64,000 bases of DNA, from NCBI GenBank assembly GCA_041660305.1, contig JBAZWO010000001.1, forward strand, positions 43,969-107,968, in the 5' to 3' direction. The notes below the pieces were generated by a model. It searched no databases. It saw only the letters and a list, made by a program, of their open reading frames with translations, and was not told where the DNA came from. This DNA comes from Patescibacteria group bacterium (GTDB lineage: Bacteria > Patescibacteriota > Patescibacteriia > UBA9570). Positions 18,027 to 55,711 of the stretch are shown here, piece after piece. A program made the position numbers and the translations under genes. How positions within the stretch are numbered: the first letter of the stretch is position 1; each line of letters opens with the position of its first letter.

Positions 18027-18050
18027 AGGTAGGAATTTTAGAGGAGGGGG
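17931..18050. repeat. composite GC-rich hairpin element (locus 2)
   Basis: Outer inverted repeat CTACCTCTCCCC...GGGGATAGAGGTAG encloses two hairpins. These are CCCCCTCTCC-taata-GGAGAAGGGG and CCCTTTCCCC-tgttt-AGGGGAAAGGG. The core aattgcattact is shared, in inverted orientation, with locus 4. Confidence 0.85.
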
Positions 18051-18070
18051 AAATTCAACACTTATATAAT

Positions 18071-18619: not shown

Positions 18620-18702
18620 ACCCCACCCCAACCCTCCCCTGCAAGGGAGGGGGTAATTAATTATTCCCCCTCTTGCAGGAGGGGGTAAGGGGGAGGTCTA
18701 GA
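18615..18702. repeat. composite GC-rich hairpin element (locus 3)
   Basis: Outer repeat TCTAGACCCC...GGGAGGTCTAGA encloses CCCTCCCC-tgca-AGGGAGGG and CCCCCTC-ttgcag-GAGGGGG. Confidence 0.85.
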
Positions 18703-18712
18703 ATGTAACCTT

Positions 18713-28208: not shown

Positions 28209-28441
28209 TCATGCGCCGGCGGACGCTTTTCTCTCCTTCCTTCCGCCACTTCCCTATTTGGTTCAGTTAATAGCTGGAACAAAGAGGCAAGAATTTTTTA
28301 TTTTTTCCTTCAAAATGAATAAAAACAAAAAGACCTTCGACCAATTTGTGGTGTATAAACCACGGCCAAAAGCCTTTTCTAGATGAATCATAGCACAATT
28401 TTATTTGACGTCAAGAGCTATATCTATATATACTAACCCTG

Positions 28442-28526
28442 GCTGTATAGGAGTGTCCCGAGTACTCGGGACTGAGAAAACATCCTAACAACTTGATCTG
28501 GGTAATGCCAGCGCAGGGAATATAGC
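28442..28526 (+). promoter_or_regulatory. TPP (THI-box) riboswitch aptamer
   Basis: P1 pairs gctgtat with atatagc. The conserved CTGAGA and ..TTGATCTGGGTAATGCCAGCGcAGGGA elements are present. It lies upstream of the thiamine ABC transporter. Confidence 0.85.
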
Positions 28527-28557
28527 TTAATGGCTTTTTAAATAAACCGTTGGCTAA

Positions 28558-28636: not shown

Positions 28637-29629
28637 ATGAAAAAACTATTTTTTATTCCAATTATGTTACTCCTAGCGCTCGGCGCTGGTTGTAGCAAAA
28701 CAGCAACTTCAACTAACACGCCTGCTCAACCGCCAGAGCTAACGATATATACCTACGATAGCCTGGCGGCTGATTACGGCTTATTGCCAAAAATCATCCC
28801 ACAGTTTGAGCAAGCTAATAACGTCAAAGTAAATGTTGTTACTTTCCCCGATACCGGCACCATGCTTAATCAGTTGTTTTTAGAAAAAAATGATCCTCAA
28901 GCTGATGTGGTGCTGGGTTTAGACAATGTCAACCTAGAAAAAGCCAGCTCTGAACAATTGTTTACTGCTGAATTAACCCCGTTCGATTACGGTTATGTAG
29001 GTTTTGTATATGATTCTGAAGCTATCCAATTTTCTGAGCCTATTAGCTTAATGGATTTAACGAATGAACAATATAAAAATAAAATAATTATTGAACAGCC
29101 CGGTTTGTCTTCACCTGGCACACAGTTATTAATTTGGTCTTATCAAGCTCTCGGCGAAACACAGGCTAAAATATTCTGGGATAAAATGAAAGATAATGTA
29201 TTAACAGTAACACCAGATTGGAACACAGCTTATTACACTATGTTTATGGAAGGCGAAGCGCCTATTGTGCTAAGCTATTTAACCAGTCCGGCTTATCATA
29301 TCGATCAGGAAAATACTGAACGTTATAAAGCTATTCCCATAAAAGAAGGCTATTTAAAACAAACTGAATATGTCGCTATTATTAATAATTCTACCAAACC
29401 AGCCTTAGCTCAACAATGGATAAATTATATGATCTCCAATTCAGTACAAAAAGAAATACCTACCACTCAATGGATGTGGCCAATAGATGCCACCGTGTCA
29501 TTACCTGCCGCTTACAGTAAAATTATTACGCCAATGCCTGAACAAATTATGGCTTTACCGGCTGATAAAATTGCTAAAAATTATGCTACCTGGCTAAATG
29601 ATTGGAATACTACTTTTAACATTAAGTAA
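28637..29629 (+). CDS. thiB: thiamine ABC transporter substrate-binding lipoprotein
   Basis: Lipobox LALGAGC. Has a TbpA/ThiB-like periplasmic binding pattern (LTIYTYDS...VVLGLDN...). Lies downstream of the TPP riboswitch. Confidence 0.8.
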   Translation: MKKLFFIPIMLLLALGAGCSKTATSTNTPAQPPELTIYTYDSLAADYGLLPKIIPQFEQANNVKVNVVTFPDTGTMLNQLFLEKNDPQADVVLGLDNVNLEKASSEQLFTAELTPFDYGYVGFVYDSEAIQFSEPISLMDLTNEQYKNKIIIEQPGLSSPGTQLLIWSYQALGETQAKIFWDKMKDNVLTVTPDWNTAYYTMFMEGEAPIVLSYLTSPAYHIDQENTERYKAIPIKEGYLKQTEYVAIINNSTKPALAQQWINYMISNSVQKEIPTTQWMWPIDATVSLPAAYSKIITPMPEQIMALPADKIAKNYATWLNDWNTTFNIK

Positions 29630-29725: not shown

Positions 29726-31120
29726 ATGGCTACGGTAATTTTATCAAAACTCTGGTTTAGCACTTGGGAAAGTGCTCTTACTGTAGTGTTGTCTTTACTT
29801 ATCGGCGGCGGATTGGCCTTATTAGAGCACGCTTGGAAACAATCTCCGCCAAGATATTTTACATTATTCATGGTATTGCCGATTTTTATGCCCACTGCCA
29901 TTGTCGCTATCGGTTTTGTAGCCTTATGGGGTAATGCCGGATATGTTAACACATTACTAAGCTGGTTTAATTTACCGGCCGTTCACTTACTGTATACGCC
30001 TTACATTATTATTATCGGCCACTTATTTTACAACGTCCCACTCGCCTATTTAGCCATTCATCTGCGCTTACGACTATTACATAGTTATCTAACGGAAGCG
30101 GCCGTAAGTTTAGGATCCTCAACTTGGCAAACTTTTTGCGTGGCGGTTTGGCCACGCTTGCGTTCAACTGTGTTAGGCATAAGTGTGATGATTTTTTTAT
30201 ATTCATTTATGAGCTTTGCTTTGCCCTTGATTTTAGGCGGTATTCGTTACCAAACTTTAGAAGTATACATTTATACTTTGGTTACTCAACAATTTAATTT
30301 GACCAGCGCTTTACAATTATCTGCCGGGCAATGGTTGGGCTTAACTTTATTAATATTAATTGGCTGGAGAAATAACGCAACAACATCTGAATCACGTTTA
30401 CATTTAGCCGAACCAACGGTTTCTTATAAAATTTGGTGCTTAAGATTAATGCGCTTTAGCTTAATATTTTTTATTATCACGCCTTTAATAGCCTTATTCA
30501 TTAATGGTTTTGGACAAAATCATTATGCCGCCTTAGCTCGTACGCAATTCTGGTCTGCCTGGTTTAGAACATTATCTATAACACTGTTAGTAATGGCAAT
30601 AACTATACTAACAAGTTTAAGTGTGTTGTTATTGAAAAAAACCAAATTAACAAAAATAATAGTCATGTTACTAGCTGTGTCACCGGTTATGTTTGGTGCT
30701 TTAGCTTTATGGCTAATTGGCAAATCTATTTTAGCTTTAACTATGGCTTATATTTTATTACTTTTACCTTTAGTGAGTTATTTGTTGCTTACCAGCTGGC
30801 AGGCGCGTCCACCGCATTTTATAGAAACTCTGCAAATATTAGGAGCCAGCCAATGGCAACGTATCTTAGCTACTTTACGCCTATTAGCACCAGCCATTTT
30901 TAAATCATTTGCCCTTGGTTTGGCGTTTGTGTTTGGTGATATTGCTTTAGCCACATTATTGGCGCCCTATCGCGAGCCATTAGTTATGAGCTTAAGTTAT
31001 GGCTTAAGCGGCTCTTATCGGTTTCATGCGGCCAGTACCGGCATGAGCCTGGTTTTGCTTACTATTATTTTCGGCATTTTAATAATCATGCTGTTAGGCA
31101 AACGTTATGAACACTCTTAG
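29726..31120 (+). CDS. thiP: thiamine ABC transporter permease (duplicated 6+6 TM)
   Basis: 464-aa polytopic protein with two ABC-permease halves. Assigned from operon context with thiB and thiQ. Confidence 0.75.
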   Translation: MATVILSKLWFSTWESALTVVLSLLIGGGLALLEHAWKQSPPRYFTLFMVLPIFMPTAIVAIGFVALWGNAGYVNTLLSWFNLPAVHLLYTPYIIIIGHLFYNVPLAYLAIHLRLRLLHSYLTEAAVSLGSSTWQTFCVAVWPRLRSTVLGISVMIFLYSFMSFALPLILGGIRYQTLEVYIYTLVTQQFNLTSALQLSAGQWLGLTLLILIGWRNNATTSESRLHLAEPTVSYKIWCLRLMRFSLIFFIITPLIALFINGFGQNHYAALARTQFWSAWFRTLSITLLVMAITILTSLSVLLLKKTKLTKIIVMLLAVSPVMFGALALWLIGKSILALTMAYILLLLPLVSYLLLTSWQARPPHFIETLQILGASQWQRILATLRLLAPAIFKSFALGLAFVFGDIALATLLAPYREPLVMSLSYGLSGSYRFHAASTGMSLVLLTIIFGILIIMLLGKRYEHS

Positions 31121-31787
31121 TGTACAACATTGTTCTGTAACTATTAACCATAAATCTATACTCCAAGATGTATCTTTTGATTTATTCACTCCGGAAATTA
31201 TTAGCATTATTGGTCCGTCTGGCTCCGGCAAAAGCACTTTATTGCGCAGTATAGCGAGCTGGCAAAAATATTCCGGCAATATTATTTTGTCTAGCAAAAT
31301 TATTGGTTGGGTAGAGCAACAATCTACTCTATTTCCCCACTTAACAGTTTTTGAAAATATCGCCTATCCATTAAAAATTAGGCACATTTCAAAAAACGAC
31401 TTACAAAAAAAAGTAACTGCTTTATTAGAACGGTTTGGTATAACAGATTTAGCCAAACGTTTACCACAACAATTAAGCGGCGGTGAACAACAGCGTGTAT
31501 CAATTGCTCGAGCGTTAATTTATGAACCAAATTTATTATTGTTAGACGAGCCGTTTGGCTCGCTGGATGCTTTATGGAAATATGATATGTTAAACTGGTT
31601 AAAAAATGTTTTACACGAGCGCCCCATTCCCACGTTATTTGTTACTCACGATCAACGTGAAGCCAGATTTATCAGCAATCGGGTTATTTGTTTAGCTAAC
31701 GGTAATATTGCTTATGACGGCGCTTGGGCTGATATTCAAGCTTGCACTAATCCGACCGTACAACAACTCTTGGCAAAAGCGCTGTAA
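31107..31787 (+). CDS. thiQ: thiamine ABC transporter ATP-binding protein
   Basis: Walker A GPSGSGKST, signature LSGGEQQRV and Walker B LLLLDEP. Confidence 0.8.
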   Translation: MNTLSVQHCSVTINHKSILQDVSFDLFTPEIISIIGPSGSGKSTLLRSIASWQKYSGNIILSSKIIGWVEQQSTLFPHLTVFENIAYPLKIRHISKNDLQKKVTALLERFGITDLAKRLPQQLSGGEQQRVSIARALIYEPNLLLLDEPFGSLDALWKYDMLNWLKNVLHERPIPTLFVTHDQREARFISNRVICLANGNIAYDGAWADIQACTNPTVQQLLAKAL

Positions 31788-31796
31788 TTGTATACT

Positions 31797-32528
31797 ATGT
31801 ACGATATTAATATGCCTAAAGATACTAGCGCCGCTTTGCAAAAAAAACTCAAACAACGCGATAACGAAGTCTGTTTATTGCAACAAATCACCAATACTAT
31901 CAGCTATAATTTAAACTTAGATGAAGTGTTGCGTGAAATTGTAAACTTAGTTTCCACTACTATATGCACCGAATCTTGTTTAATTTATTTAGTACAAGAT
32001 AATACATTAATACTTAAAGCCTATAAAATTCCCGGCCAAACAACCGTGCAGAATGTTATTATCAAGTTCGGCGAGGGTATTACCGGTCGCGTAGCCAAAC
32101 AACGTCAACCAATTTTATTAACTAAACGCGCTTACGCGGATAAACGATTTATTACTATTCCTAATGTTGACATAGAACGTTTAGAAACTTTTCTCTCGGT
32201 GCCGATTATTTGGCAAAATAATATTGTTGGAGTGATTAACATTCAAAATCGTTATGTGAGACATTATAATAAAAACGAACTACAGCTTTTAAACACTATC
32301 GCTACACAAGTAGGCGGCGCTATTTCTAACGCTAAATTACTATCTGAAACAAATATTTTGAAACAAACTATCGCCGCCAGAAAAATTATTGAAAAAGCCA
32401 AAGGCTTGTTAATGAAACAGCGCAACCTATCTGAAAATGAAGCCTATAAACTAATGCGAAAAAAATCTATGGATTCAAAAAAAAGTTTACAGGAAGTGGC
32501 CGAAGCAATTTTATTAACCTTGGTTTAA
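31797..32528 (+). CDS. GAF-ANTAR RNA-binding regulator (paralog 1)
   Basis: GAF block ...FGEGITGRVA...FLSVPI..QNN.VGVINIQN. The C-terminal ANTAR helix pattern is RKIIEKAKGLLMKQ..LSE.EAY.L.RK.SM.S.K...EVAEAIL. The ORF-track start at 31788 is a TTG; the first ATG is at 31797. Confidence 0.8.
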   Translation: MYDINMPKDTSAALQKKLKQRDNEVCLLQQITNTISYNLNLDEVLREIVNLVSTTICTESCLIYLVQDNTLILKAYKIPGQTTVQNVIIKFGEGITGRVAKQRQPILLTKRAYADKRFITIPNVDIERLETFLSVPIIWQNNIVGVINIQNRYVRHYNKNELQLLNTIATQVGGAISNAKLLSETNILKQTIAARKIIEKAKGLLMKQRNLSENEAYKLMRKKSMDSKKSLQEVAEAILLTLV

Positions 32529-32539
32529 CTATATTAAAC

Positions 32540-33226
32540 ATGGCATCCTGTCGACATCAAAAAGAACTAATACTATTGCAACATATTACAACTACTATTA
32601 GTTATAACTTAAATCTTGATGAAGTATTACACGAAATAGTACATTTAGTTTCCAAAACTATGCGCGCTGATTCCTGTTTAATTTATTTAACCCAAGAGCA
32701 CTCCCTAATTTTAAAAGCTTCTAAAATTCCACATCCAAAAATGATTAATAAAGTAGCTATGCAGTTTGGCGAAGGTATTACCGGCTGGGTAGCACAACAG
32801 CGTGAAATAACCGTTATATCCAAGCAGGCTTATCAAGATAAGCGCTTCAAAATTGTCCCCCATTTAGATGAAGATCGTTTCGAAGCGTTTATTTCTGTAC
32901 CAATTATTTTTCAAAATAATGTTGTTGGGGTAATTAATGTTCAAAATAGAAAAAAAAGAATTTATACTCCTAAAGAACTTAAATTAATACAAACTATCGC
33001 CGCCCAAGTTGGTGGCGCCATTTCCAACGCCAAACTTTTATCGGAAACTGTCAATTTAAAACAAGCTCTGGCGGCTAGAAAAATTATCGAAAAAGCCAAA
33101 GGCTTGTTAATGAAACAACAACACTTGTCTGAAGAATCTGCCTACAATCTTATTAGAAAAAAGGCTATGAATAGCAAAAAAACTAGACAAGAGGTAGCTG
33201 AAGCCATCCTCTTGGCATTTAATTAA
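32540..33226 (+). CDS. GAF-ANTAR RNA-binding regulator (paralog 2)
   Basis: Collinear with paralog 1 over its full length and highly similar by eye. Confidence 0.8.
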   Translation: MASCRHQKELILLQHITTTISYNLNLDEVLHEIVHLVSKTMRADSCLIYLTQEHSLILKASKIPHPKMINKVAMQFGEGITGWVAQQREITVISKQAYQDKRFKIVPHLDEDRFEAFISVPIIFQNNVVGVINVQNRKKRIYTPKELKLIQTIAAQVGGAISNAKLLSETVNLKQALAARKIIEKAKGLLMKQQHLSEESAYNLIRKKAMNSKKTRQEVAEAILLAFN

Positions 33227-33247
33227 AGCTGTGTTATTATATGTTTG

Positions 33248-33320
33248 ATTAGCACAATGTCGTGCTGATGCAAATAGACAATGTAGTCTTCTACTCCTAT
33301 GTTAGAGTCGAAGATTTTTT
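33248..33320 (+). promoter_or_regulatory. ANTAR-type dual hexaloop hairpin overlapping an intrinsic terminator (glnA leader)
   Basis: Hairpin 1 (33248-33269) is ATTAGCAC-AATGTC-GTGCTGAT. Hairpin 2 (33276-33289) is AGAC-AATGTA-GTCT. The terminator (33287-33320) is TCTTCTACTC-8nt-GAGTCGAAGA plus T6. The 3' arm of hairpin 2 forms part of the terminator 5' arm. Confidence 0.65.
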
Positions 33321-33339
33321 ATTAAACAAAATTTATTAT

Positions 33340-34656
33340 ATGACCAAAACAGACATCTTAAAAAAAGTGCGAGCCGAAAACGTTACTATTATTGGTTTTT
33401 GGTTTACGGATATATTAGGTCAATTAAAAGGCATTACGTGTCCGGTGCAACGCTTGGCGCAGTATTTGGATGAAGGAATTTTTTTTGACGGATCATCTAT
33501 TGATGGTTATGCCCGTATTGAAGAAAGCGATCTAATTTTAAAACCAGTGCTTGAATCATTCGCTATTATTCCACTGGATGCCGATTCACATAAAATCGCT
33601 CGATTCATGTGCCTGGTTGATAATGCCAAAAATGAACCGTATCATAGCGATCCGCGCAATATTCTGGCTCAAAATGTGACCTATGCAAAAAAACTGGGTT
33701 TTACTTATTTTGTTGGACCAGAATTAGAGTATTATTATTTTAAAAATGATAAAAGTACTGCTTTATTAGATAATGGTGGCTATTTCGACCAATTAACCAC
33801 TCATCAAGGCACTTTTTTACGTGAACGTTCAGTAGAAGCTTTGGAAAAACTTGGCTACACCGTAGAACGTGGCCATCATGAAGTAGGTCCGTCACAACAA
33901 GAAATCAACATGAAATATGCCGATTCTTTAACGATGGGTGATATAGTGATGACGCAAAAATTCATTATTAAAGAAATCGCCCGCCAAAATGATTTATATG
34001 CCACGTTTATGCCCAAGCCGATGTTTGGCCAAGCCGGCAGTGCTATGCATATTCATCAGAGTTTATGGAAAAATGGTAAAAACTCTTTTTACGATGCTAA
34101 AGATAAATATGGTTTATCAACTATCGCCAAATCATTTATCGCCGGTATCATTAAACACGTTAACGAAATTGCTTTAGTAACCAACCAATACGTGAATTCT
34201 TATAAGCGCTTAGTGCCAGGTTACGAAGCCCCGGTTTATTTGGCTTGGGGGCGCCAAAATCGTTCGGCTTTGGTACGCGTACCGTTAACACGTGGTAATC
34301 CAAGCGCCGCACGCATTGAGTTTCGCTGTCCAGATCCAGCGGCTAATCCTTATTTGGCTTTTGCCGTAGCGTTACGCGCCGGCCTAAAAGGTATTGCGGA
34401 AAATTATCAACTGCAACCGCCCACCGAAAATAATATTTATGAAATGCAACCAAGTGAAATGAAAAAACGTGGCATTAAAGCCGTGCCGGCCACTTTAGGC
34501 GAAGCTATCCATTATGCTGAAACCAGCGAATTATTGCGCGAAACATTAGGTCAAGAAACATTTACTAAATTAATTGCCAATAAAAAAATTGAATGGCACA
34601 ATTACCGCCGCCAAGTGCATCAATACGAGGTTGATAATTACTTGCCAATATTATAA
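33340..34656 (+). CDS. glnA: glutamine synthetase, type I
   Basis: The start is moved to ATG 33340 (MTKTDILKKVRAENV...F.F.D..G) because the ORF-track N-terminus translates the leader. Also has GPE.EYY.F, HHEVGPSQ.EI, MHIHQSLW and NSYKRLVPGYEAP....W...NRSA.VR.P. Confidence 0.9.
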   Translation: MTKTDILKKVRAENVTIIGFWFTDILGQLKGITCPVQRLAQYLDEGIFFDGSSIDGYARIEESDLILKPVLESFAIIPLDADSHKIARFMCLVDNAKNEPYHSDPRNILAQNVTYAKKLGFTYFVGPELEYYYFKNDKSTALLDNGGYFDQLTTHQGTFLRERSVEALEKLGYTVERGHHEVGPSQQEINMKYADSLTMGDIVMTQKFIIKEIARQNDLYATFMPKPMFGQAGSAMHIHQSLWKNGKNSFYDAKDKYGLSTIAKSFIAGIIKHVNEIALVTNQYVNSYKRLVPGYEAPVYLAWGRQNRSALVRVPLTRGNPSAARIEFRCPDPAANPYLAFAVALRAGLKGIAENYQLQPPTENNIYEMQPSEMKKRGIKAVPATLGEAIHYAETSELLRETLGQETFTKLIANKKIEWHNYRRQVHQYEVDNYLPIL

Positions 34657-40917: not shown

Positions 40918-40946
40918 TTGACGATATAACAGACTAAGTTCATAAT
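40918..40946 (+). promoter_or_regulatory. sigma70-type promoter candidate for the T-box leader
   Basis: TTGACG (40918-40923), 17-nt spacer, CATAAT (40941-40946). Confidence 0.45.
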
Positions 40947-40959
40947 TCTAATAATTTAA

Positions 40960-41202
40960 TAACTTAACTATTTCAACCACAGACGGAGAAATGCGCGCTC
41001 CCGAGGTTGCTACCGAAGAAAGTTCCGAATACTTGGAACAAGTAGGATTAGCTGGGTGGCCCCCAGAAACAAAATAGCTCAATGAGTGTCCTGAGGCTTG
41101 CACCGGCAAGATCGAAGGAAATCGGGGTGGTACCACGGGGCTTAATAAATCCTCGTCCCTTACTAGAAACCAAGTGTTTCTAGTTGGAGACGAGGGTTTT
41201 TT
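40960..41202 (+). promoter_or_regulatory. T-box leader (tRNA-sensing riboswitch) with antiterminator/terminator
   Basis: The T-box core is GGAAATCGGGGTGGTACCACGGGG (41117-41140). The antiterminator pairs GGG/CCC and ACGGGG/CCUCGU around the 7-nt bulge UGGUACC. The competing terminator spans 41151-41202 (CCTCGTC...GACGAGG plus T6). Confidence 0.75.
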
Positions 41203-41230
41203 ATATAATAAAAAATAACTATTAACATAT

Positions 41231-42304
41231 ATGATCAAACATTTATTACCAACTAACCTGTCATTTAATGACCATTTTGCAAATATAGTAAACATTACTC
41301 AAACAGCTCACCAAGCTGTGCTTAAACACTACACTCAGGCTGGCTTAACTTATGTAGATGTACCAGCCATTGTTGGTATTACAGGCGCTTGTGAAAATGT
41401 AGACACATTATTCAAAATACAATCACATCAGCCTGGCTTGAATCTGTTTTTTACCCAAACCGGTCAATTATCTTTAGAACAAGCTCTGCAGGTTTTTCCT
41501 GGCGCATGTACAATTATCCACTCTGGTCGAGACGAAGAGATTGAAGATGAGCGTCATTTACGCCAATTTCGCTTAATTGAAGAAGAATTTGATTGTACTA
41601 TGATTGGCATGACCCGCGAAACTTACAACGAACAAGCTATGTTCGAAAATCTCCTGCAACATATTCAACAAGCCGTGCAAGCCATGTTCAGTGCGATAAT
41701 AAAAGATCATAGCGATATTCTTGCACAAGCTTACCAACACAATGTACAGAACATTAAGTTAGCCAGCACTCAGCCGTTCTTACGCATTCGTTATGAAGAT
41801 ACCATACAATTACTCAACCATAACGGTTTTACAGATCTCCGATTTGGCGATGATTTGCACAGCAAACATGAAGCAAAAATAGTACAACTACTGAATACAT
41901 CCGGCACAGAATTACCTGTATTTATTACGCACTATCCTAAAGAAATTAAATTTTTCAACATGAAAGTATCAAGCATTGATGCACGAGTATGTTTGTCGGC
42001 CGATTTGATTCTGCCATACTCTGGCGAGGCTACCGGCTCGGCTGTCCGTGAACATGATTTTACTAAACTAAACGAACGTCTGCTTGCTTCAACTATGTAT
42101 AAATTACATCGGGAACGAGGTGGCACCTATGAAGATTTTAAATGGTACTTAACTATTATGGAACAAAAACTTACCAATCCACACGCCGGTTATGGTATTG
42201 GTAACGACCGGATTATGCAATATATTTTAGGTCTAACAGACATTCGCCAAGCTTCGATATTTACATTGCTCAATCAACAAACCGGGGATTGGCTAAGAAA
42301 ATAA
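41231..42304 (+). CDS. AsnRS-like class II aaRS catalytic-core paralog lacking an anticodon-binding domain (archaeal-type asparagine synthetase A-like)
   Basis: Motif 2-like ERHLRQFRLIEEEF. Also has GEATGSAVREHD and motif 3-like YEDFKWYL......PHAGYGIGNDRIMQYILGLTDIRQ. At 357 aa it has no N-terminal OB-fold. Confidence 0.65.
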   Translation: MIKHLLPTNLSFNDHFANIVNITQTAHQAVLKHYTQAGLTYVDVPAIVGITGACENVDTLFKIQSHQPGLNLFFTQTGQLSLEQALQVFPGACTIIHSGRDEEIEDERHLRQFRLIEEEFDCTMIGMTRETYNEQAMFENLLQHIQQAVQAMFSAIIKDHSDILAQAYQHNVQNIKLASTQPFLRIRYEDTIQLLNHNGFTDLRFGDDLHSKHEAKIVQLLNTSGTELPVFITHYPKEIKFFNMKVSSIDARVCLSADLILPYSGEATGSAVREHDFTKLNERLLASTMYKLHRERGGTYEDFKWYLTIMEQKLTNPHAGYGIGNDRIMQYILGLTDIRQASIFTLLNQQTGDWLRK

Positions 42305-42412
42305 CAGCTTATTTATGCATCAATTCTACTTATCATTAACATTACGTCGTCGTACTCAATCACACTTGAGGTTATTTGTTAGTGTTTGAGTATTAACTAA
42401 AATATTATCACG

Positions 42413-42442
42413 CAACCTCAAGAATTTCCTTGAGGTTGTTTT
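42413..42442 (+). terminator. intrinsic terminator after the AsnRS-like gene
   Basis: CAACCTCAAG-aatttc-CTTGAGGTTG followed by TTTT. Confidence 0.7.
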
Positions 42443-42937
42443 GTGCAAATTTGTATCATGGAGAACCAAATGAGAGAGGTAGATCGTCAGGTAATCACGG
42501 TAGATTTTTCCCAAAAACTGATCGGCCTACAGTCCAATCGTAACGGGACTTGGGAACATGATCACACGCCAGAATACCCAGTAGAGCAAGATATGTTCTT
42601 TGCTGGTGAAACGCACGCTCAATTCACTGTGGCTCTGTTTGAGCGAGTAGAAAGTACGCCACAGGAATTTCTGGATGATGAGCTAGTTAAATATAACGCT
42701 CGTCATACCAATGAAGTACTCGTAGCAGCTTCTCCACGAATTCTCTACGCATATGGGCTATGTAGTGCCCAACAAGTGGAATATTGTTCCAGCATCGACG
42801 CCCACGGGCAAACCCACCAGGGTAAAAATCTGCCGAAAATGTATTGCGTGTGCTACATCAAAGATAGCACACTCTATTTCACACATTGGCAGTTCGAAAA
42901 GCAACAGGCTCATAAAGTGCTGCTGGTCGTGAAATAA
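42443..42937 (+). CDS. hypothetical protein
   Basis: 164-aa ORF with a GTG start in the track. The alternative ATG at 42470 (MREVDRQ...) lies 8 nt after GGAGA. GC-richer than its surroundings. No family assigned. Confidence 0.45.
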   Translation: MQICIMENQMREVDRQVITVDFSQKLIGLQSNRNGTWEHDHTPEYPVEQDMFFAGETHAQFTVALFERVESTPQEFLDDELVKYNARHTNEVLVAASPRILYAYGLCSAQQVEYCSSIDAHGQTHQGKNLPKMYCVCYIKDSTLYFTHWQFEKQQAHKVLLVVK

Positions 42938-47571: not shown

Positions 47572-48192
47572 TTATTGTTTAGGAATAGTAAATAAACGCT
47601 TGTTTGGATCTGTATTATTCGGATCATAAAAATGTTTTACTTCATTACCATCCGTGTAACTATCTTTATCAGTATCTGGATTTCTAGGATCGGTACCATA
47701 CACGCGCACTTCCTCTCGATCGGACAAACCATCTTCATCGGTATCTGTTTTCTTTGGATTTGTATTATACACTATTTCTTCCCCATCCGTTAAACCGTCA
47801 AAATCGCTATCAATTGAATTATTTTGATTAGTGTTGCTAAGTGGTGGTGTAATATTAGCACTATTGGTTAATGGTGTAACAATATTATCATTAACTGTAT
47901 TTGTAGTTGCTTTATTAGTTACTGAAGTTGCTGTTAGACCGCGTTGTTTCAACCAAAATAGCACTCCTCCTGTTATTACGCTCAATAATATAATAATTAA
48001 CAAAATTAAAAAAAATTTTCGCCACCGCCAAAAAAAATATTTTATATTTGAACTAAATACCGATAAACTAGTTTGTTTAGGAATAATTACGGCTGGTGTA
48101 TTAACAGTAGGTTCTGTAGCTGTATTATCTACCACAGCAAACACATCTTCCACTACTGGCTCTGCGTTAACATTATTGGCCAACGGTTCCAT
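47572..48192 (-). CDS. membrane-anchored protein with thrombospondin type 3 (calcium-binding) repeats
   Basis: TM helix FFLILLIIILLSVITGGVLFWL. The repeats read DSDFDGLTDGEEIVYNTNPKKTDTDEDGLSDREEVRVYGTDPRNPDTDKDSYTDGNEV. Confidence 0.6.
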   Translation of the reverse strand: MEPLANNVNAEPVVEDVFAVVDNTATEPTVNTPAVIIPKQTSLSVFSSNIKYFFWRWRKFFLILLIIILLSVITGGVLFWLKQRGLTATSVTNKATTNTVNDNIVTPLTNSANITPPLSNTNQNNSIDSDFDGLTDGEEIVYNTNPKKTDTDEDGLSDREEVRVYGTDPRNPDTDKDSYTDGNEVKHFYDPNNTDPNKRLFTIPKQ

Positions 48193-51100
48193 AATCAGCG
48201 CTGGTAGTTAATGATTTATCAACGTGATAATTAAAGGTCTTACAGCCTGATTTAGAATAACTTTGCGCCCAAGGTGCACAAGGATCATTGAGTTCTTCTT
48301 TCCAACTACCAATATTTGTATATTCTAAATTAGCATATAAATTAAAATTACGCTGCGTAGTATCGTAAATATATTGATAAACATGCGATTCAGCCGGACC
48401 TTTGTAATCTTTAAATACCGGATCCCAACATGTACCACTTTCGTCGTAATAAGAATAAATATAATCACCGGTGGTTGGATCGGTGGCGTTTGGATTCACA
48501 GTTGAATCGGATAAATCTGGTGGCTTATAAAGACATTCTTTAGCTGCGTTATTAAAAGTATTTACTGAATCAACTGGTAATGTTTGTCCAAGCGCATTAC
48601 CTAAATTAGCCGCCCAGGATGGCCAAACTGAAGTAGTTAAATTAGTAATATATGAACCAGACTCTAATTGAGGATAATCATTATTTGTTTCATAATACTG
48701 GTGTAATAAATAAGCCATGGAACCAAAATCATTTATTCTAGCTGTATCACGTATTAATTTTTGCTTTTCTACCTGACACTCTAAAGATAAACTAGTATTA
48801 GTGTTAAAGTCTAAACCATCTAGTATAGCTTGTACCGCCGCCGTAGTAGCGTTATTAGCATTGCTACTATAAGACAATACATAGATATATGGCGTAATAA
48901 CACCGGCCGTACCATTTTCTACTAAATTAGTGGCCGCAATATAGTAAGTATTATTCACTTGTACCGCCCGATAACCATCAATTGGATTAATGCTACGCGG
49001 AGTTTCTGTAGTATTAGCAAATAAGCTGTACCATAAATCTGGGTTAACACTATCTTTATAATTAGAGGCATTAGTTAAACTATTTGGATAAACCCGCAAA
49101 GCAATAATATTGTTGTTTGCATTCGGATCATTATCAGATTTAAGCGCGGTAGCATCTTTAAACGCTGCTTCGTATAGAAAGGGCACGGTTTCCTGGTACT
49201 GTGTGGCAGCTTGATCTTGTGTAGCACGAGAAAAAACTTCTATAAAATCTGGTAAATCACCATCGCGACAATATGACCAGCGGAAATTATAATCATTATT
49301 TTCATAAATAGTTAGTTGATCCGTGCTGGAACAAAACTTAACCCACAACATTGGACTAGTAGCAGTTAATGATCCTGTCCAACCATCGTCATTAGCTGCA
49401 TCGGCATTAATAGTTACGCTTACAGTATCACTGCCACCATCTTTTTTGCCAGCTGTAACAGTTTGTTGGGCTTGATTTTCATTAAAATTTCCTCCCTCGA
49501 TAATACCAAGCGCCGGACATTCATTTTCATCCAAATTTTCTAATGTAGCATATTTTTCTTTCCAACTATATGTCCAATTATATACTCCTGTAATTGGTGT
49601 AACTAGTTGATCATCTGTTGTGGAAGCTTTATCGGCTCCAGCACTATATACTACAGCTTTCATGGCTTCTTTTTGTCCGGCCTTAGTAAAGGTATAACCG
49701 GCATCAATGAATTTGCTATTTTTTGCTTCTAACGTAACTCGACTTGGCGCACAATTATTAGTGAACGCAGTTTGATCTGGTACCGTGGTAAAAGTATAGG
49801 TTAGCTTATCACCGGTACAAGTAACACCTTCAGCGCCACAACCAATTGCTACTCCGTCGGCTAAACTAACAACACCGCCTTGATGATTGGTGCCTGGTTC
49901 AACCTTACCACTAGCTAGTAGTGTTAACTGGTATTGCGTATTAAATTCTAATAAACTTTTTTGCAACACAGTAATGCTGGTACCGTCTTCTGATAACGTA
50001 ACTGCATTAGTAAAATCTTCACCGGTAGCTACTTTTGTTAACGTTACATAATTTTTTAAATCTGGTGTATTAGCCGCTTCTGTACCAAACGCGGCACTAG
50101 TGGTAACTGGTAAATTAAATTTAATTGAGATATTGGCATTTGAACAAACATTGGTAGTTTGTGGCACCGGCATAGATGCACTACTTAGTATCTGTGGTTG
50201 CAAAGCACAAGTGCCGACATCATAATTATTTAGTTCTTTAGTGGTGGCGTCATCATATACACAACTAGTGTGATTGCAACAAGAATTATACCCAGCCGTA
50301 AGTGTTTCCCTACAAAAACCTGTAGTAGTGGTAGTACAAGCGCCAAACGTAGGATTATTAGGATCGCTAGCGTTTCCAGGATGATACGTAAAATTACAAT
50401 TCATACTGGTATTCTCACCACAATCAGCACAAGTATTACACGCTACCGCAAAATCTAAGCCATTACTGGTACATTGTTGATTCGCTGTAGTAGTAGATAC
50501 GGCCACTACATTACCACTTTCAGCTGATGAGGGAATATTAGTATTATAAGCCGGCATTACACCTGGAATATAATCATTAATCACTGCCTGAATGTTGTTA
50601 TTAAATACCACCGAACCAGATAGTTTTACATAATTTGGCGTAGTAGCCTGACAAGCCGGATCTATTGTACAACTAGTAATGGCATCGGCTGGCATACAAG
50701 CCGAAGCACCTTCTGGAATGCTACAAAGCACTGTGCCTGAGCCATCACCAGCGTAATAATCACATACACCAGTACTGGCATTATAAACTGCGTTAGAATC
50801 GTTACTGTCTACTGTTTGTGGTGAACATGGTTCTGGTATGGTATAAGTATCTGGTGTAACAGCACAGTTAGTTTGCCCCTCTGCTATATTGCAAGATTTT
50901 TTATCACTAGTAGTACAAGGACAATAACCACCTTTTTCTCCATAAAAATAATAGCCTGTTAACGTAGTGTTACTAGCAGTGTTGTTACTGGTATAAGCGC
51001 CGTATTCTGGATTAATATCACATAAAATAGGCATGCTAACTTCTGAACAACTGTTGTCTTTGGTAAACACTGCTGCTTCAACAATATCCGATACTTGTGT

Positions 51101-54100
51101 AACCACCTGACCAGAACTATTCGTTGAAGCTTGAGTAACTAATAAATCAGCTTTTGTGTCATTATCATCAGTAAAGGTTTTGTCTGGAATATTAATAATA
51201 ATTCGCTCATTATTCCAAGCTTGTTCTGCACAAGCTAAATCAGCAATTATATCATCCACCCCTTCAACTTCACTATAAACTGTAACCTGGCTAGCAGAAT
51301 CATAATACGAACCAAAATAACAACCCTGTACCGTAACCGGTTGCCCAATAGCGCCTTGAGTTGGACTTAGCTTAGTAACTACTGGCTTACAAAAACCGTT
51401 ATTGCAAGTAGATTTACACGCACCGTTATTACAATCAGCGTCGCTGGCACAAATATTACATTGTTCTGTAGGCACACATTGTCCACCTAAACAACATTTA
51501 CTAGCACAATCATTTTTATAACCACACGATACAGCAAAGGCTAAGGCATTACTTGTGGCTGTGCTTTGACCGCTTTGATTATTTTCCACTCGTACACCAA
51601 AACTACTATCACCCGTACTATAAGCCGGGATTTTTACCGCTTGAATTAATGTATCTGTCCATTTAAAAATTTGTTTGCCATCATTCACACTACTGTTTCG
51701 ACTAGTTACTTTACCACTAGCATCTTTTACTGCAAACGTAACCGCTTCTTGCTCATTATTTTTTAACAAATTAAAATTTTCCCCAGCCAAATCGGTAGTG
51801 GAACCTTCTTGGGTAGTGCTAGGTTTAGCTGAACACAAACAAGCGGTTTTTTCGTTGCCAATTTCACAATTTGTATCACTCGAACCAGTTAAATTATTAC
51901 CGTTCATGTCTTGATAATAGCTGTTTACCGTAATGCCATAACTACCGGCTGAAAAATCATTACTTTCTGGCACTTTTACTACAATTTGATTATTATCCCA
52001 AACATCCTGACAGCTATCTGGATTAGGATATTCTGCTTCAGTAGTAACACTATTACTATTAAATGTTACTGAACCTACTGCTGGCGCCACATAATTAGTA
52101 TTTTTATCATCACACTTTTGTTGTCCAGGAATAATACAACTAGTTTCTCCGGCTGATACTGAACATGTTTGATTAGCTAGTGTACAAGTACAACCAGTTA
52201 TCACTCCACTATACTGTTCACTATCACTATATTGCACTGTAGCTGAATTACTAGAACAAGTTTCTTTGTTTGGTAATACACACAGCTGCTCATCTAAACT
52301 GCAATAAGTAGAATGATCATTTAACAAACATTTGGTACCACCAACTGATACTGAACAAGTTTTATCCGGTTTGCTCTGACTAGCACAAGAACAATATGGT
52401 TCAGCACTACGATCTGGGCCAAAATAACAGCCGTTAACTGTTAAACAACCACCCTTACCAGCAGTATCCGGACTAAAACCAGTAATATCTGGGGTGCAAT
52501 GATGACTGGCTGGATCACATGTAGTCTGCTGACAACTTTGGGTATAACAATCGGTATCATTGGTACAATAGCCATAATCTACATCTACAACAGCGGTATC
52601 GGTAACTGTGCTATTTTTTTGTACTAAATCAGTAGTAACTGTGCGCATGCCCATATTACTAGAATTCTGGCCTTGTAAACAAACTGTATTGTAACCAATA
52701 TCAGTGGTAGACGAACTGGTCTGATTAGCAGAAAAAGCAATCACATTAGTATCAGCTACTCCATCACTATTAGCAATATTCCAATTATACTTCCAACTTG
52801 AATTACTACTAGTGTTGTTTAATAGTGAACAATCACTGGTTAATGGCGATGCTTCAAAGGTATATTGGCTGCTATCAACGCTATAGTTTAATAAACAAGT
52901 GTGTAGCGGATCGTATTTAGTTACTTTTTCATAATCAGGTTCTAATAATAAATCACTCGCTTCACAAGCTTCGGCATTATCTTTTACTTGAAACTTCCAG
53001 CTATAATCTGCCGCCATAGGCTGGCCAGCTAAATTAGTAACTGTAGCCGGAATTACTACTTTATAATAAGTATTAGCAGCTAAATTGCTAGCTGGCTTAA
53101 ACTTGTAAGCACTGTAACTTGTGCCAGTATTAGTTGTTTCATGATAATTTGGATAAGTTGTGCTTAATGTACCAATACTATAATTACCACCCACTACATC
53201 TTTACAACTATCATCATCAAATGATTTTTCACTATTAGCACCAGCGTTATTACATTTATATATTTTAGTATTACTGGTAACCAAATTATCATTCATGCGC
53301 GCATTAAACGCAAAATACACTACTGCGTTTACACATACACTAGTTTGATTACTACGTGGATTCGGTAAATATACCGTACTATCATTACAAGCATAATATT
53401 CATATACTTCCGGCGGTGGATTACAACTAATTTTAAAATCCAAGCCATTACTAGATATTTTATTAGCATCCATAGCCACCACATCGTAAGTATCTGGATT
53501 GACCACCGGCGTACCAGTGGTTTTAAACTGCGTATTAGCCCATTGCTGCACCAGTGCCGATACGTAATTATCCATGGTATTAATTCCTTGGAACCAAACG
53601 CTACCTTTGCTGCTACCAAAATTTTCACCTGTGCCCACTACATCATCTTTGCCGGTATCTGAACAAGCTGGCTCTAACTTACATAAGCCTGGGCCAGGTT
53701 TTTTGGTATTAACCGTAAACATTTGCGGATTACTGTATTTAGTGGCTTTGGTAACCACTTGAATATTAGGCGTAGTAATAGCCAGTCCCTCTGGCACTTG
53801 CACGATAATTTGCCTATCTGTCCAACTGTTATCACACACTACCGCTGCTTCTACATCATCAAAGTAAACTTTGCCAACCTCATCGCCGAATTGTTTTCCT
53901 TTAATAGTAACGTATTGTCCCACTGGGCCTTCACTAGGTGAGGTGTACCTGATATATGGCGACAATATTTCAATTGGCGTTGAGGTATCTTCCCCATTAG
54001 CATTTTGTACTGTAACGCCTTCTGTTTGACTAGCTACAGCCGTACGAATAAAAATTTGTTCACTACCTTGATGGTCTACATAACATTTTTCCTCTACATC

Positions 54101-55711
54101 ATGGGCATCATTAAAACAATTTATGCCACTACCAGCTAACACATTTCTATAAAACACTACGTCTACAAACGGATATAAATATTCACCGGTAATAGTAACT
54201 ACATCACTACTGATATTTTCACTATAATAGTTTTTTTCTGCCGGAGAAATACCGGTTATTTTCGGCATACAATACGGCTCAGTACCTGTTGTCCACGTCC
54301 AGGGATAATTATACGCCACGTAATCTGGGCTAGCGGCCGAACAACTAGCATTACATGGATTGCCTGCTTTAGTAGTACAACTATTTTCACCGTCTTTTAC
54401 ATGGCAAGATTCCCCACTAGGTAAATTGCAATAACAAAACGCTTGCTTATTGGCCGCGCTAGTTGGAGAATCTACGAAATCATCAGCAACCGATCCCTGC
54501 GCTGTGCCATTATAATTTCCATCTAACGGATTACCACACATATCCGTAATAGCGTCGTTATTTTTATTACCATCTTTACCACCATACAAACTAATCCCAT
54601 AAGTTGTTTTTGGCTCTAATTGATTTTGTACGCCAGTAACTACAGTATCGTCGGCAAATCCACCGATACTAGATGATTTAATATTACTAATATCCAACTG
54701 ATCAGTTGGTGTAACGCCTTCAGCGGCTTGATACAACCAAATATTAGCATCGCTAGGTGTAGTGGGATCTAAACTTTCTGAAAACGATACTTGGATAGTA
54801 GGATTTAAACAAATTTCTACCGCATCATCTTCTGGATAAGGATTCACATCTACCACATCTACCACGGGCGGTATTTTATCGGTCTCTGTACCAGTATGAA
54901 ACGTAAAGTTAGTATGATTAGAACTATTAGCTAAGTAAATCTGTAATTGCTGATCATTCACACCGGCTACGCCAGTAGTGCCGGTTTTTATTTCCACATG
55001 ATAATCCGTATTTGGTAAATAATCCTCATTTGGCCGGAACACTACAACAGCTGGATTATCTACAGAAAAACTAAACTTACCTGGTAGCGGATCACCCGAT
55101 CCACCTACTACCGTTACTTTTATATTATCGTCACTCACAACATCTGGCGTATCGTTATTAATAGTTTTAGTAATAACTTGATCGCTAAATGTAATAGCTA
55201 CACCATAACATAACGGCACGTTTTGATTAGCTGGATCATTAATATTTCCTGATGGATTAGTGTGATCAATTTTTAATTGTGCACCAGCTCCGGTACTAGT
55301 ACCTGGCCCTGTACCACTAGTATCTTGTGTAGAAGTGGCATCGGTAACATCTAGTAATTTATTAATAATATATGTAACAATACCCCAAGAAGCTAATATT
55401 ATTACTAAGCCAATTACCCCATTTTTAATAATGGCTTTGGCTTTTTCAACTTTTTCTTCTGCACCATTAGACAATAACCAAGTAAACCCGCCCCACAAAA
55501 TAATCAATACAGCAATTAAAGCTAATATGCCTAATGCCCAGTTAATAACACTAATAACAATATCAATTGGCGAACTGTTACCTAATATTATTTGATCGCC
55601 ATAAGCCATGTTAACCGTACTGGCTGTATCAGCTGCGATGACAAACCATGGTGCTATAAACGCACTACTACTGACAAATAAAAATTGTAGCAGTTGTTTT
55701 GGTTTAATCAC
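48173..55711 (-). CDS. giant (2512 aa) Cys-rich surface protein: T4SS-pilin-like N-terminal anchor, Ig-like (SbsA/Big_5-type) and IPT/TIG-like modules, CxC cysteine modules
   Basis: One uninterrupted ORF. The N-terminus is a signal peptide plus INWALGILALIAVLIILWGGFTWLLSNGAEEKVEKAKAIIKNGVIGLVIILASWGIV. IPT-like units include PKITGISP..., YTSPSEGPVGQYVTIKGKQFG, PDITGFSPDTAG and PVVTKLSPTQGAIGQPVTVQGCYFG. Confidence 0.85.
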   Translation of the reverse strand: MIKPKQLLQFLFVSSSAFIAPWFVIAADTASTVNMAYGDQIILGNSSPIDIVISVINWALGILALIAVLIILWGGFTWLLSNGAEEKVEKAKAIIKNGVIGLVIILASWGIVTYIINKLLDVTDATSTQDTSGTGPGTSTGAGAQLKIDHTNPSGNINDPANQNVPLCYGVAITFSDQVITKTINNDTPDVVSDDNIKVTVVGGSGDPLPGKFSFSVDNPAVVVFRPNEDYLPNTDYHVEIKTGTTGVAGVNDQQLQIYLANSSNHTNFTFHTGTETDKIPPVVDVVDVNPYPEDDAVEICLNPTIQVSFSESLDPTTPSDANIWLYQAAEGVTPTDQLDISNIKSSSIGGFADDTVVTGVQNQLEPKTTYGISLYGGKDGNKNNDAITDMCGNPLDGNYNGTAQGSVADDFVDSPTSAANKQAFCYCNLPSGESCHVKDGENSCTTKAGNPCNASCSAASPDYVAYNYPWTWTTGTEPYCMPKITGISPAEKNYYSENISSDVVTITGEYLYPFVDVVFYRNVLAGSGINCFNDAHDVEEKCYVDHQGSEQIFIRTAVASQTEGVTVQNANGEDTSTPIEILSPYIRYTSPSEGPVGQYVTIKGKQFGDEVGKVYFDDVEAAVVCDNSWTDRQIIVQVPEGLAITTPNIQVVTKATKYSNPQMFTVNTKKPGPGLCKLEPACSDTGKDDVVGTGENFGSSKGSVWFQGINTMDNYVSALVQQWANTQFKTTGTPVVNPDTYDVVAMDANKISSNGLDFKISCNPPPEVYEYYACNDSTVYLPNPRSNQTSVCVNAVVYFAFNARMNDNLVTSNTKIYKCNNAGANSEKSFDDDSCKDVVGGNYSIGTLSTTYPNYHETTNTGTSYSAYKFKPASNLAANTYYKVVIPATVTNLAGQPMAADYSWKFQVKDNAEACEASDLLLEPDYEKVTKYDPLHTCLLNYSVDSSQYTFEASPLTSDCSLLNNTSSNSSWKYNWNIANSDGVADTNVIAFSANQTSSSTTDIGYNTVCLQGQNSSNMGMRTVTTDLVQKNSTVTDTAVVDVDYGYCTNDTDCYTQSCQQTTCDPASHHCTPDITGFSPDTAGKGGCLTVNGCYFGPDRSAEPYCSCASQSKPDKTCSVSVGGTKCLLNDHSTYCSLDEQLCVLPNKETCSSNSATVQYSDSEQYSGVITGCTCTLANQTCSVSAGETSCIIPGQQKCDDKNTNYVAPAVGSVTFNSNSVTTEAEYPNPDSCQDVWDNNQIVVKVPESNDFSAGSYGITVNSYYQDMNGNNLTGSSDTNCEIGNEKTACLCSAKPSTTQEGSTTDLAGENFNLLKNNEQEAVTFAVKDASGKVTSRNSSVNDGKQIFKWTDTLIQAVKIPAYSTGDSSFGVRVENNQSGQSTATSNALAFAVSCGYKNDCASKCCLGGQCVPTEQCNICASDADCNNGACKSTCNNGFCKPVVTKLSPTQGAIGQPVTVQGCYFGSYYDSASQVTVYSEVEGVDDIIADLACAEQAWNNERIIINIPDKTFTDDNDTKADLLVTQASTNSSGQVVTQVSDIVEAAVFTKDNSCSEVSMPILCDINPEYGAYTSNNTASNTTLTGYYFYGEKGGYCPCTTSDKKSCNIAEGQTNCAVTPDTYTIPEPCSPQTVDSNDSNAVYNASTGVCDYYAGDGSGTVLCSIPEGASACMPADAITSCTIDPACQATTPNYVKLSGSVVFNNNIQAVINDYIPGVMPAYNTNIPSSAESGNVVAVSTTTANQQCTSNGLDFAVACNTCADCGENTSMNCNFTYHPGNASDPNNPTFGACTTTTTGFCRETLTAGYNSCCNHTSCVYDDATTKELNNYDVGTCALQPQILSSASMPVPQTTNVCSNANISIKFNLPVTTSAAFGTEAANTPDLKNYVTLTKVATGEDFTNAVTLSEDGTSITVLQKSLLEFNTQYQLTLLASGKVEPGTNHQGGVVSLADGVAIGCGAEGVTCTGDKLTYTFTTVPDQTAFTNNCAPSRVTLEAKNSKFIDAGYTFTKAGQKEAMKAVVYSAGADKASTTDDQLVTPITGVYNWTYSWKEKYATLENLDENECPALGIIEGGNFNENQAQQTVTAGKKDGGSDTVSVTINADAANDDGWTGSLTATSPMLWVKFCSSTDQLTIYENNDYNFRWSYCRDGDLPDFIEVFSRATQDQAATQYQETVPFLYEAAFKDATALKSDNDPNANNNIIALRVYPNSLTNASNYKDSVNPDLWYSLFANTTETPRSINPIDGYRAVQVNNTYYIAATNLVENGTAGVITPYIYVLSYSSNANNATTAAVQAILDGLDFNTNTSLSLECQVEKQKLIRDTARINDFGSMAYLLHQYYETNNDYPQLESGSYITNLTTSVWPSWAANLGNALGQTLPVDSVNTFNNAAKECLYKPPDLSDSTVNPNATDPTTGDYIYSYYDESGTCWDPVFKDYKGPAESHVYQYIYDTTQRNFNLYANLEYTNIGSWKEELNDPCAPWAQSYSKSGCKTFNYHVDKSLTTSADYGTVGQ

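Follow-up and report, generated by a model that had tools for sequence, protein, structure and literature searches.

A non-canonical T-box with an ultrashort Stem I, probably reading tRNA-Arg, ahead of an asparaginyl-tRNA synthetase-derived catalytic core in a Patescibacteria genome

The window considered here, that is, the whole stretch of DNA that was analysed, comprises 64,000 nt from a Patescibacteria group bacterium (UBA9570; JBAZWO010000001.1, positions 43,969-107,968). It carries a gene for a 357-aa protein derived from the catalytic core of asparaginyl-tRNA synthetase (AsnRS), which is preceded by a T-box leader and followed by a predicted leader-peptide attenuator with consecutive arginine codons and by an orphan open reading frame (ORF) (Table 1). 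The explanation that seems to account best for this arrangement, and that is held with somewhat more confidence than doubt, is a T-box with a short Stem I that attenuates transcription, responds to tRNA-Arg and controls an AsnRS-derived core belonging to a family linked to pyr and arg genes. Close relatives of the protein are rare, only three having been found among 5.8 billion protein sequences (81-85% identity); their contigs were retrieved (L081, L082 and L083), and the leader comparison is a three-way alignment of the T-box leaders of the window, L081 and L082. The wider family was surveyed for genomic context in 80 loci with 3-kb flanks, and for conservation in an alignment of 20 members.

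Table 1. Positions of the predicted regulatory elements and genes at the locus (coordinates of the window)
Feature	Position	Strand	Details
Sigma-70-like promoter candidate	40918-40946	+	-35 TTGACG (40918-40923), 17-nt spacer, -10 CATAAT (40941-40946)
Ultrashort Stem I, 34 nt	40975-41008	+	AACC/GGUU basal helix, K-turn-like GA/GA loop, GGAG/CUCC helix, apical loop
Stem I apical loop AAAUGCGCG	40989-40997	+	From alignment and pair table
Likeliest specifier CGC (Arg) and loop-closing G	40994-40997	+	TBDB rule
Stem II with S-turn (CCGAAG...CAAGUAGG)	41009-41052	+	RF00230 Stem II GAA/AGUA motif
Stem IIA hairpin and IIA/B pseudoknot	41053-41079	+	Hairpin 41053-41065, pseudoknot with AGCU 41076-41079; from pair table
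Linker AAUGAGUG	41081-41088	+	Invariant across the three leaders
Variable Stem III	41089-41119	+	3/4 outer pairs changed on both sides
T-box core GGGTGGTACCACGG	41125-41138	+	Sole match in the window
T-box and antiterminator	41125-41159	+	GGG, bulge UGGUACC, ACGGGG, loop, CCUCGU, CCC
Intrinsic terminator	41150-41202	+	47-nt hairpin (41150-41196), then UUUUUU
AsnRS-derived catalytic core, 357 aa	41231-42304	+	Without anticodon-binding domain, without MGS domain
Leader-peptide ORF MHQFYLSLTLRRRTQSHLRLFVSV, then stop	42315-42389	+	CGT CGT CGT at 42345-42353
Predicted attenuator	42356-42443	+	Segment 1 CUCAA; segment 2 CACUUGAGGUU (42364-42374); terminator hairpin 42412-42439, then UUU
Orphan ORF, 159-164 aa	42458-42937	+	Downstream of the Arg attenuator

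The T-box-defining motif AGGGUGGNACCGCG is present in the window as GGGUGGUACCACGG, where 0.01 matches to the core would be expected by chance, and the same 14 nt are found in L081 and L082 except for one A/G change. The minimum-free-energy fold of 41124-41160 (-9.2 kcal/mol) is the antiterminator, with its GGG/CCC and ACGGGG/CCUCGU helices around the 7-nt UGGUACC bulge, and its 3' strand has CCUCGUCCC in common with the terminator hairpin, the energy of which (-26.2 kcal/mol, z = -5.7) compares with -19.9 and -17.1 kcal/mol for the homologous terminators of L081 and L082, respectively. Between the end of the U-run and the start codon lie 28 nt, and no pairing that would mask the Shine-Dalgarno sequence, as in translational control, was seen in the leader. 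In L081 the terminator (4976-5036) is weakened, having GACUGGGCC as its 3' arm and a U-run of only four U, and the switch may be leakier in this lineage.

The promoter candidate, with 10 of 12 consensus matches in a consensus scan, is kept in L081 and L082 as a TTGAC(A/G) hexamer and a -10-like hexamer, and because it lies only about 25 nt before Stem I, there is no long Stem I upstream. The features of a long Stem I, namely the internal specifier loop, the AG bulge and the distal loop or tRNA-elbow platform, are accordingly not found in the leader; the minimum-free-energy fold of the 34-nt element agrees instead with the drawn ultrashort structure, in which the apical loop measures 6-9 nt across the three leaders and the AACC-AGU-GA...GA-GGUU pattern, invariant and thus devoid of covariation, fits a kink-turn (K-turn) and aligns to the GA motif of the Rfam T-box model, RF00230. 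In the alignment to this model the K-turn base is retained, while 73 distal Stem I positions are deleted, with 6 nt in their place. Stem II (-10.3 kcal/mol, z = -2.5) has six base pairs with compensatory changes, and the IIA/B pseudoknot pairs the loop UAGCU with AUAGCU in L081 and L082 and GGC with GCU, one G-U pair included, in the window. Taken over the three leaders, 97.6% of the cells of the structure are paired and nine pairs are changed on both sides, values reached by none of 500 shuffles, and the signal collapses when the partners are slid.

At the gathering score of RF00230 (93 bits) no T-box is found in the whole window, but a permissive scan below that score gives the leader 37.8 bits (E = 5e-7 locally, 8e-5 window-wide) and the homologous leaders 51.9 bits (L081) and 32.4 bits (L082), so that the E-values across the three leaders, from 5e-7 to 3e-4, are significant even though every score is under 93 bits. 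No second T-box was revealed by the permissive scan of the window, hisS (57434-58915) being without one, and a metagenome scan with CCGAGGTTGCNNCCGAAGAAAG yielded seven chance matches in unrelated coding DNA and did not return the window's own contig. The low Rfam score and the truncated Stem I, together with the weak terminator and short U-run of L081 and the loss of the T-box in one orthologue, might be expected of a decaying or tRNA-independent remnant in which the terminator is constitutive or driven by another factor; this is very unlikely, in view of the compensatory changes in three helices and of the retention, in three lineages whose proteins share 81-85% identity, of the K-turn-like motif, the S-turn, the pseudoknot, the 14-nt T-box and the overlap of antiterminator and terminator. 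The leader is therefore best described, from its sequence and predicted folds, as a real T-box of non-canonical, short-Stem I architecture. An earlier note on this DNA, made from the sequence alone, had correctly recognized the promoter candidate, the T-box core with its bulged antiterminator, the long competing terminator and the absence of a drawable canonical Stem I, but it had called the T-box canonical, a term that neither the Rfam check it proposed nor the ultrashort Stem I sustains.

The identity of the tRNA is indicated by the apical loop, since in T-boxes with an ultrashort Stem I the specifier loop is the hairpin loop itself according to TBDB (10.1101/2020.06.17.157016). Under the TBDB rule the specifier is formed by bases 2-4 as counted from the loop's 3' end, and these give CGC, an arginine codon, in all three leaders, the loops being AAAUGCGCG in the window, AAACGCG in L081 and UUCGCC in L082, and it is because of this CGC that tRNA-Arg is the most likely ligand. 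Arginine is favoured independently by the discriminator, as the variable UGGN base is U and pairs with A73, which is found in six of seven CPR (candidate phyla radiation) tRNA-Arg genes from related loci, the sole CPR tRNA-Asp found having G73; by argS, which in L014 and L015 lies downstream of the family gene in its short form, at a distance of about 1.4 kb; and by the predicted Arg-codon attenuator of the L083 orthologue described below. CGU and CGC are both decoded by the ICG tRNA, and the T-box thus probably senses tRNA-Arg with anticodon ICG and discriminator A73 rather than tRNA-Asn.

Two other tRNAs have to be weighed against this assignment. Read in the +1 frame, as are about 1.4% of the specifiers in TBDB (10.1101/2020.06.17.157016), the loops would present an alanine codon that abuts the helix in each of the three leaders. 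The A73 of tRNA-Ala also matches UGGU; however, this frame leaves no unpaired base 3' of the codon, alanine is unconnected with the gene or its context, and the predicted L083 attenuator supports arginine independently, so that an alanine-reading T-box is most improbable and tRNA-Ala has very little claim to be the ligand. The second alternative was put forward in the earlier note, in which uncharged tRNA-Asn would report asparagine shortage and induce an asparagine synthetase of AsnA/AS-AR type that works without tRNA. T-box control of asparagine genes is known in Firmicutes, and asparagine codons do lie within the Stem I loop of the window (AAU) and of L081 (AAC), yet they stand 5 and 3 nt from the helix, respectively, without a fixed position, and none occurs in the loop of L082; hence a conserved AAC or AAU followed by a purine at the specifier position is not seen in the three leaders, and, G73 being usual in tRNA-Asn, the UGGU bulge could pair with it only through a G-U wobble. 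The shortage logic consequently fails on its own terms, the specifier position being occupied by CGC and not by an asparagine codon. The specifier suggested in the same note, AAC followed by A at 41068-41071, was rejected, as it sits in the linker after the IIA hairpin and is not conserved (ACACAU in L081, AGAAAA in L082), and the AAC of the basal helix (UCAACC) was rejected as well because it is paired with GGUU. Recognition of tRNA-Asn is accordingly regarded as unlikely.

The L083 orthologue (84% protein identity) has no T-box, and directly upstream of its AsnRS-like gene are found instead a promoter, a 24-aa ORF (MNYLVQPLQLNRRTQPHLRACVSV) with tandem CGT CGT, alternative hairpins and a terminator, which speaks against asparagine as the sensed amino acid. 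The same architecture is shared by this element (L083, 293-425) and by the attenuator that in the window follows the AsnRS-like gene and precedes the orphan ORF. In the window copy the 2:3 antiterminator is the minimum-free-energy fold (-22.1 kcal/mol, z = -4.3) and the terminator hairpin has an energy of -16.8 kcal/mol (z = -6.8); the leader ORFs are of equal length in both copies, with 12 of 24 residues identical. Conserved between the window and L083, the only two copies known, are the ORF of the predicted element, its tandem CGU codons and its alternative folds, and no consistent tandem-Arg leader peptides were found upstream of the other 80 loci. The orphan ORF has no Pfam match and matches only itself among the 5.8 billion proteins. 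Judged from these two contigs, the T-box and the predicted Arg leader-peptide attenuator are interchangeable on orthologous genes.

The protein matches Pfam tRNA-synt_2 (1.2e-29) and, in the asnS model of 455 positions (TIGR00457 / NF003037), aligns only over positions 131-449, with 161 bits against a cut-off of 342.6; because no other positions align, an OB-fold domain is lacking, in agreement with the earlier description of a class II synthetase core without an anticodon-binding domain. Its best matches in the PDB are AsnRS cores such as 1x54 (2e-24 for the single sequence and 6e-36 for the family profile; Foldseek gives 1.7e-23 and a TM score of 0.72), and mean pLDDT in the AlphaFold model is 78.8, residues 46-80 and 99-112 being poorly modelled. 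Homologues number more than 1,300, with informative source names nearly all from Patescibacteria and about 64% identity across phyla, and 108 columns are invariant across CPR phyla, among them the AsnRS-type pocket motifs TGACEN...LF, QLxLE and GSxxRE as well as motifs 2 and 3. Invariant too is the acidic character of the motif-2 loop, RDEEEEDERH, which would be hard to reconcile with binding of the tRNA acceptor end.

A working AsnRS under an ordinary synthetase T-box, with its anticodon-binding domain absent or provided in trans, would be in keeping with the annotation by JGI as asparaginyl-tRNA synthetase, with best matches that are bona fide AsnRS catalytic domains and with the conservation of all the ATP and amino-acid motifs. 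This possibility is nevertheless extremely unlikely, because the score is under half the asnS cut-off, the loop that contacts the acceptor end in class IIb enzymes is the invariantly acidic one, the specifier position holds an arginine and not an asparagine codon, and the C-terminal fusions of the family are a carbamoyl-phosphate synthetase (CPS)-type allosteric domain, PyrD and phosphoribosyltransferase (PRTase) domains, not RNA-binding domains. The asparagine synthetase required by the tRNA-Asn alternative finds some encouragement in the pocket residues kept by this AsnRS-derived protein (QLxLE, GSxxRE and the flipping-loop Glu) and in weak matches to asparagine synthetase A models (66 bits). 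Those models (PRK06462 type, NCBIfam) give, however, only 26-67 bits against cut-offs of 309-389, the match to the archaeal AS-AR 3p8t (2.7e-6) is confined to about 90 residues at the C-terminus, and AsnA is found neither by profile search, in its E. coli form, nor among the top 50 matches of Foldseek, so that the comparison with AsnA and AS-AR models and structures proposed earlier turned out against an archaeal-type AsnRS paralogue acting as asparagine synthetase A. By the tests run, all of them on sequence or predicted structure, the protein is a member of neither the AsnRS nor the AS-AR/AsnA group, and the family appears as a separate AsnRS-derived group that is largely confined to CPR bacteria; the 357-aa protein is probably an adenylate-forming core that does not charge tRNA.

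The neighbouring genes and the fusions of the family suggest a place in pyrimidine and arginine metabolism. An MGS-like C-terminal fusion is present in 42 of the 80 loci, and this domain aligns to about 932-1050 of the CPS models, which is the allosteric C-terminus of the large subunit of carbamoyl-phosphate synthetase. Within the flanks are found pyrD (24 loci, usually as the next gene downstream), pyrF (17), a pyrE-like PRTase gene (14) and a cytosine-deaminase-like amidohydrolase (NF005365; 8), and in five loci an argG-like gene fused to an MGS domain flanks the family gene; these neighbours (pyrD, pyrE, pyrF and argG), none of them asn genes, argue further against the asparagine synthetase alternative, which is considered unlikely as a whole. 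One such operon, L041:305-6867, reads ArgG-MGS, amidohydrolase (NF005365), AsnRS-like-MGS, PyrD, PyrE and PyrF, with an ArgG that scores 507 bits against a cut-off of 334 and is thus a true argininosuccinate synthase. The same operon type occurs in L026, L035, L055 and L031, and no carAB, pyrB or canonical pyrC was found in the stretch; the operon may encode an undescribed route to dihydroorotate. In L046 (2959-6348) a single 1129-aa ORF unites AsnRS-like, MGS, DHO_dh and PRTase-like domains and is followed by pyrF, and in L091 AsnRS-like-MGS, PyrD, PyrF and PRTase are accompanied by UPRT, PyrG, PurB, PurA and GuaB, pyrB, pyrC and carAB being absent within 10 kb. L056 and L061 have a phosphoribosyl pyrophosphate synthetase near the family gene, L003 and L074 an aspartase/fumarase-class lyase. 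In many CPR loci (L002, L006, L007, L009, L013, L021, L023, L039, L056 and L060) the 150-230 nt or so upstream of the family gene hold a TTGACA promoter, a 13-22-codon ORF and a GC-rich hairpin with a run of 7-9 U; the stop codon of the ORF abuts the hairpin, which recalls the pyrBI attenuator of E. coli.

In the mechanism proposed for the window, uncharged tRNA would base-pair at two places, the anticodon finding its partner in the triplet of the Stem I loop and the NCCA end in the UGGU bulge, and binding would stabilize the antiterminator, leading to read-through into the AsnRS-like gene. The enzyme would then make an aspartyl- or asparaginyl-type adenylate and hand it to an acceptor other than tRNA. 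Induction by arginine limitation, the CPS-type allosteric domain of family members and their place at the head of pyr operons suggest that this product contributes to the pyrimidine ring its ureido or carbamoyl part, or else serves arginine synthesis; an enzyme that stands where arginine and pyrimidine metabolism meet is the best guess. Carried further, the family would be the missing entry enzyme of a CPR pyrimidine pathway without carbamoyl phosphate, the window clade having lost the CPS-type allosteric domain and passed control to two tRNA-Arg-sensing RNA devices. The entry chemistry could then be the closure of asparagine, CO2 and ATP into dihydroorotate, or the ATP-dependent cyclization of argininosuccinate or carbamoyl-aspartate at the aspartyl part; the latter would involve two partners encoded in the same operons, the cytosine-deaminase-like amidohydrolase and the ArgG-MGS fusion. 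Control by tRNA-Arg would make sense if arginine were the normal source of ureido or carbamoyl groups in these cells; the extended proposal is nonetheless speculative and rather doubtful.

Several observations weigh against a tRNA-Arg-sensing T-box on a pyr/arg-linked enzyme. The Rfam score is far under the gathering threshold, only three T-box leaders can be compared, and Stem I, with helices identical in all three, has no covariation support of its own and a folding energy no better than shuffled (z = 0.7), so that its fold rests on analogy. As to the ligand, two of the three Stem I loops hold an asparagine codon too, the +1 frame gives an alanine codon in every leader (GCG, GCG and GCC), the base after CGC in L082 is C and not the usual purine, and the A73 match is drawn from related CPR loci and not from the host's own tRNA-Arg(ACG) or tRNA-Asn. 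The core GGTGGNACCNCG is absent from both strands of the 80 family loci, which implies that T-box regulation is lineage-specific; no pyr or arg genes are found in the window; and there is no obvious reason for arginine starvation to induce an enzyme that binds asparagine or aspartate.

If the proposed reading holds, its consequences extend beyond this locus. A Patescibacteria T-box that is missed by the curated Rfam threshold means that short T-boxes in uncultured lineages are probably under-counted, and the exchange of a T-box for a leader-peptide attenuator on orthologues would represent a natural replacement of regulatory modules, as well as an independent route to specifier assignment. The regulated protein, for its part, belongs to a large, strongly conserved and uncharacterized family, mislabelled AsnRS in databases and tied to pyrD, pyrE, pyrF and argG, and this raises the question by what route the pyrimidine ring is obtained in minimal CPR cells. 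A search of the available collection of papers returned nothing on T-box and Patescibacteria, on CPR and AsnRS, or on CPR and pyrimidine and carbamoyl phosphate.

Elsewhere in the window, the locus is flanked by nrdR, a corrinoid adenosyltransferase gene and a class II ribonucleotide reductase gene to one side and by ftsZ and ftsA to the other, and none of asnS, gatCAB, pyrB, pyrC and carAB is found within the 64 kb. A thiamine pyrophosphate (TPP) riboswitch (28439-28536, + strand; 63.6 bits, above threshold) precedes an ATP-binding cassette (ABC) transporter operon encoding a solute-binding protein (28637-29629), a permease (29726-31120) and an ATPase (31107-31787), probably a thiamine uptake system. 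Two adjacent GAF-ANTAR regulator genes and, after them, a glutamine synthetase gene (31788-34656, + strand) suggest that nitrogen assimilation in this CPR genome is controlled by RNA antitermination. A group of near-perfect, long hairpins between short ORFs (17922-18830), which hits several unrelated microRNA models on both strands (E 0.003-0.4), probably consists of palindromic intergenic repeats or bidirectional terminators, and a 2512-aa ORF (48173-55711, - strand) and another protein with an ice-binding-like domain and DUF7507 repeats (1964-3652, - strand) are probably surface proteins.

Compared with known systems, the window protein resembles archaeal AS-AR (Pyrococcus, PDB 3p8t/1nnh) and bacterial AsnA in being a class IIb core without an anticodon-binding domain, and AS-AR is likewise derived from AsnRS; its family differs from both in fusions and genomic context, and in the profile AS-AR matches no more than the C-terminal third; the protein has the look of a bacterial-type AsnRS that was truncated independently. 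With CarB/PyrAB the family has in common the C-terminal MGS-like allosteric domain of its members and a place at the head of pyr operons, and induction by arginine limitation, as it appears in the window clade, would recall carAB, which is under dual arginine and pyrimidine control; CarB is, however, an ATP-grasp enzyme, whereas the AsnRS-like family has a class II synthetase core. The predicted attenuators of the window and L083 share with trpL, hisL, pheL and the Arg-codon leader of Salmonella speF (PMC6386406) a tandem-codon ORF overlapping 1:2, 2:3 and 3:4 hairpins and a terminator, and differ from the known ones in their regulatory CGU (Arg) codons, in their CPR host and in standing in for a T-box.

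As regards the leader itself, the transcriptional T-boxes of Firmicutes (B. subtilis tyrS, glyQS) have the same 14-nt T-box, antiterminator with a 7-nt bulge and mutually exclusive terminator, as well as the succession of Stem II, IIA/B and III, the linker AGUG, and a K-turn at the base of Stem I to which the window leader corresponds in sequence pattern; the window leader, by contrast, has no AG bulge, no distal loop and no internal specifier loop carrying an S-turn of its own. In these respects it approaches the ileS T-boxes of actinobacteria (Nocardia farcinica, Mycobacterium tuberculosis; PDB 6UFM, 6UFG), a likeness that rests on published descriptions and not on alignment to ileS RNAs, since it has a short Stem I with a K-turn-like motif and an apical loop that holds the specifier, the elongated Stem II with its S-turn and the compact IIA/B pseudoknot, without a distal double-T-loop platform; the ultrashort Stem I, the S-turn of Stem II and the pseudoknot that define the short-Stem I class are thus all found in the window leader. 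The ileS T-boxes act on translation through a sequestrator, are specific for isoleucine and control a synthetase, whereas the window leader ends in an intrinsic terminator, presents CGC (Arg), precedes a non-synthetase paralogue and comes from Patescibacteria. Transcriptional T-boxes are generally held to require a long Stem I with an elbow-binding platform (PMC7583486), and if the proposed reading is true, an ultrashort-Stem I T-box can, contrary to current reviews, act by transcription termination.

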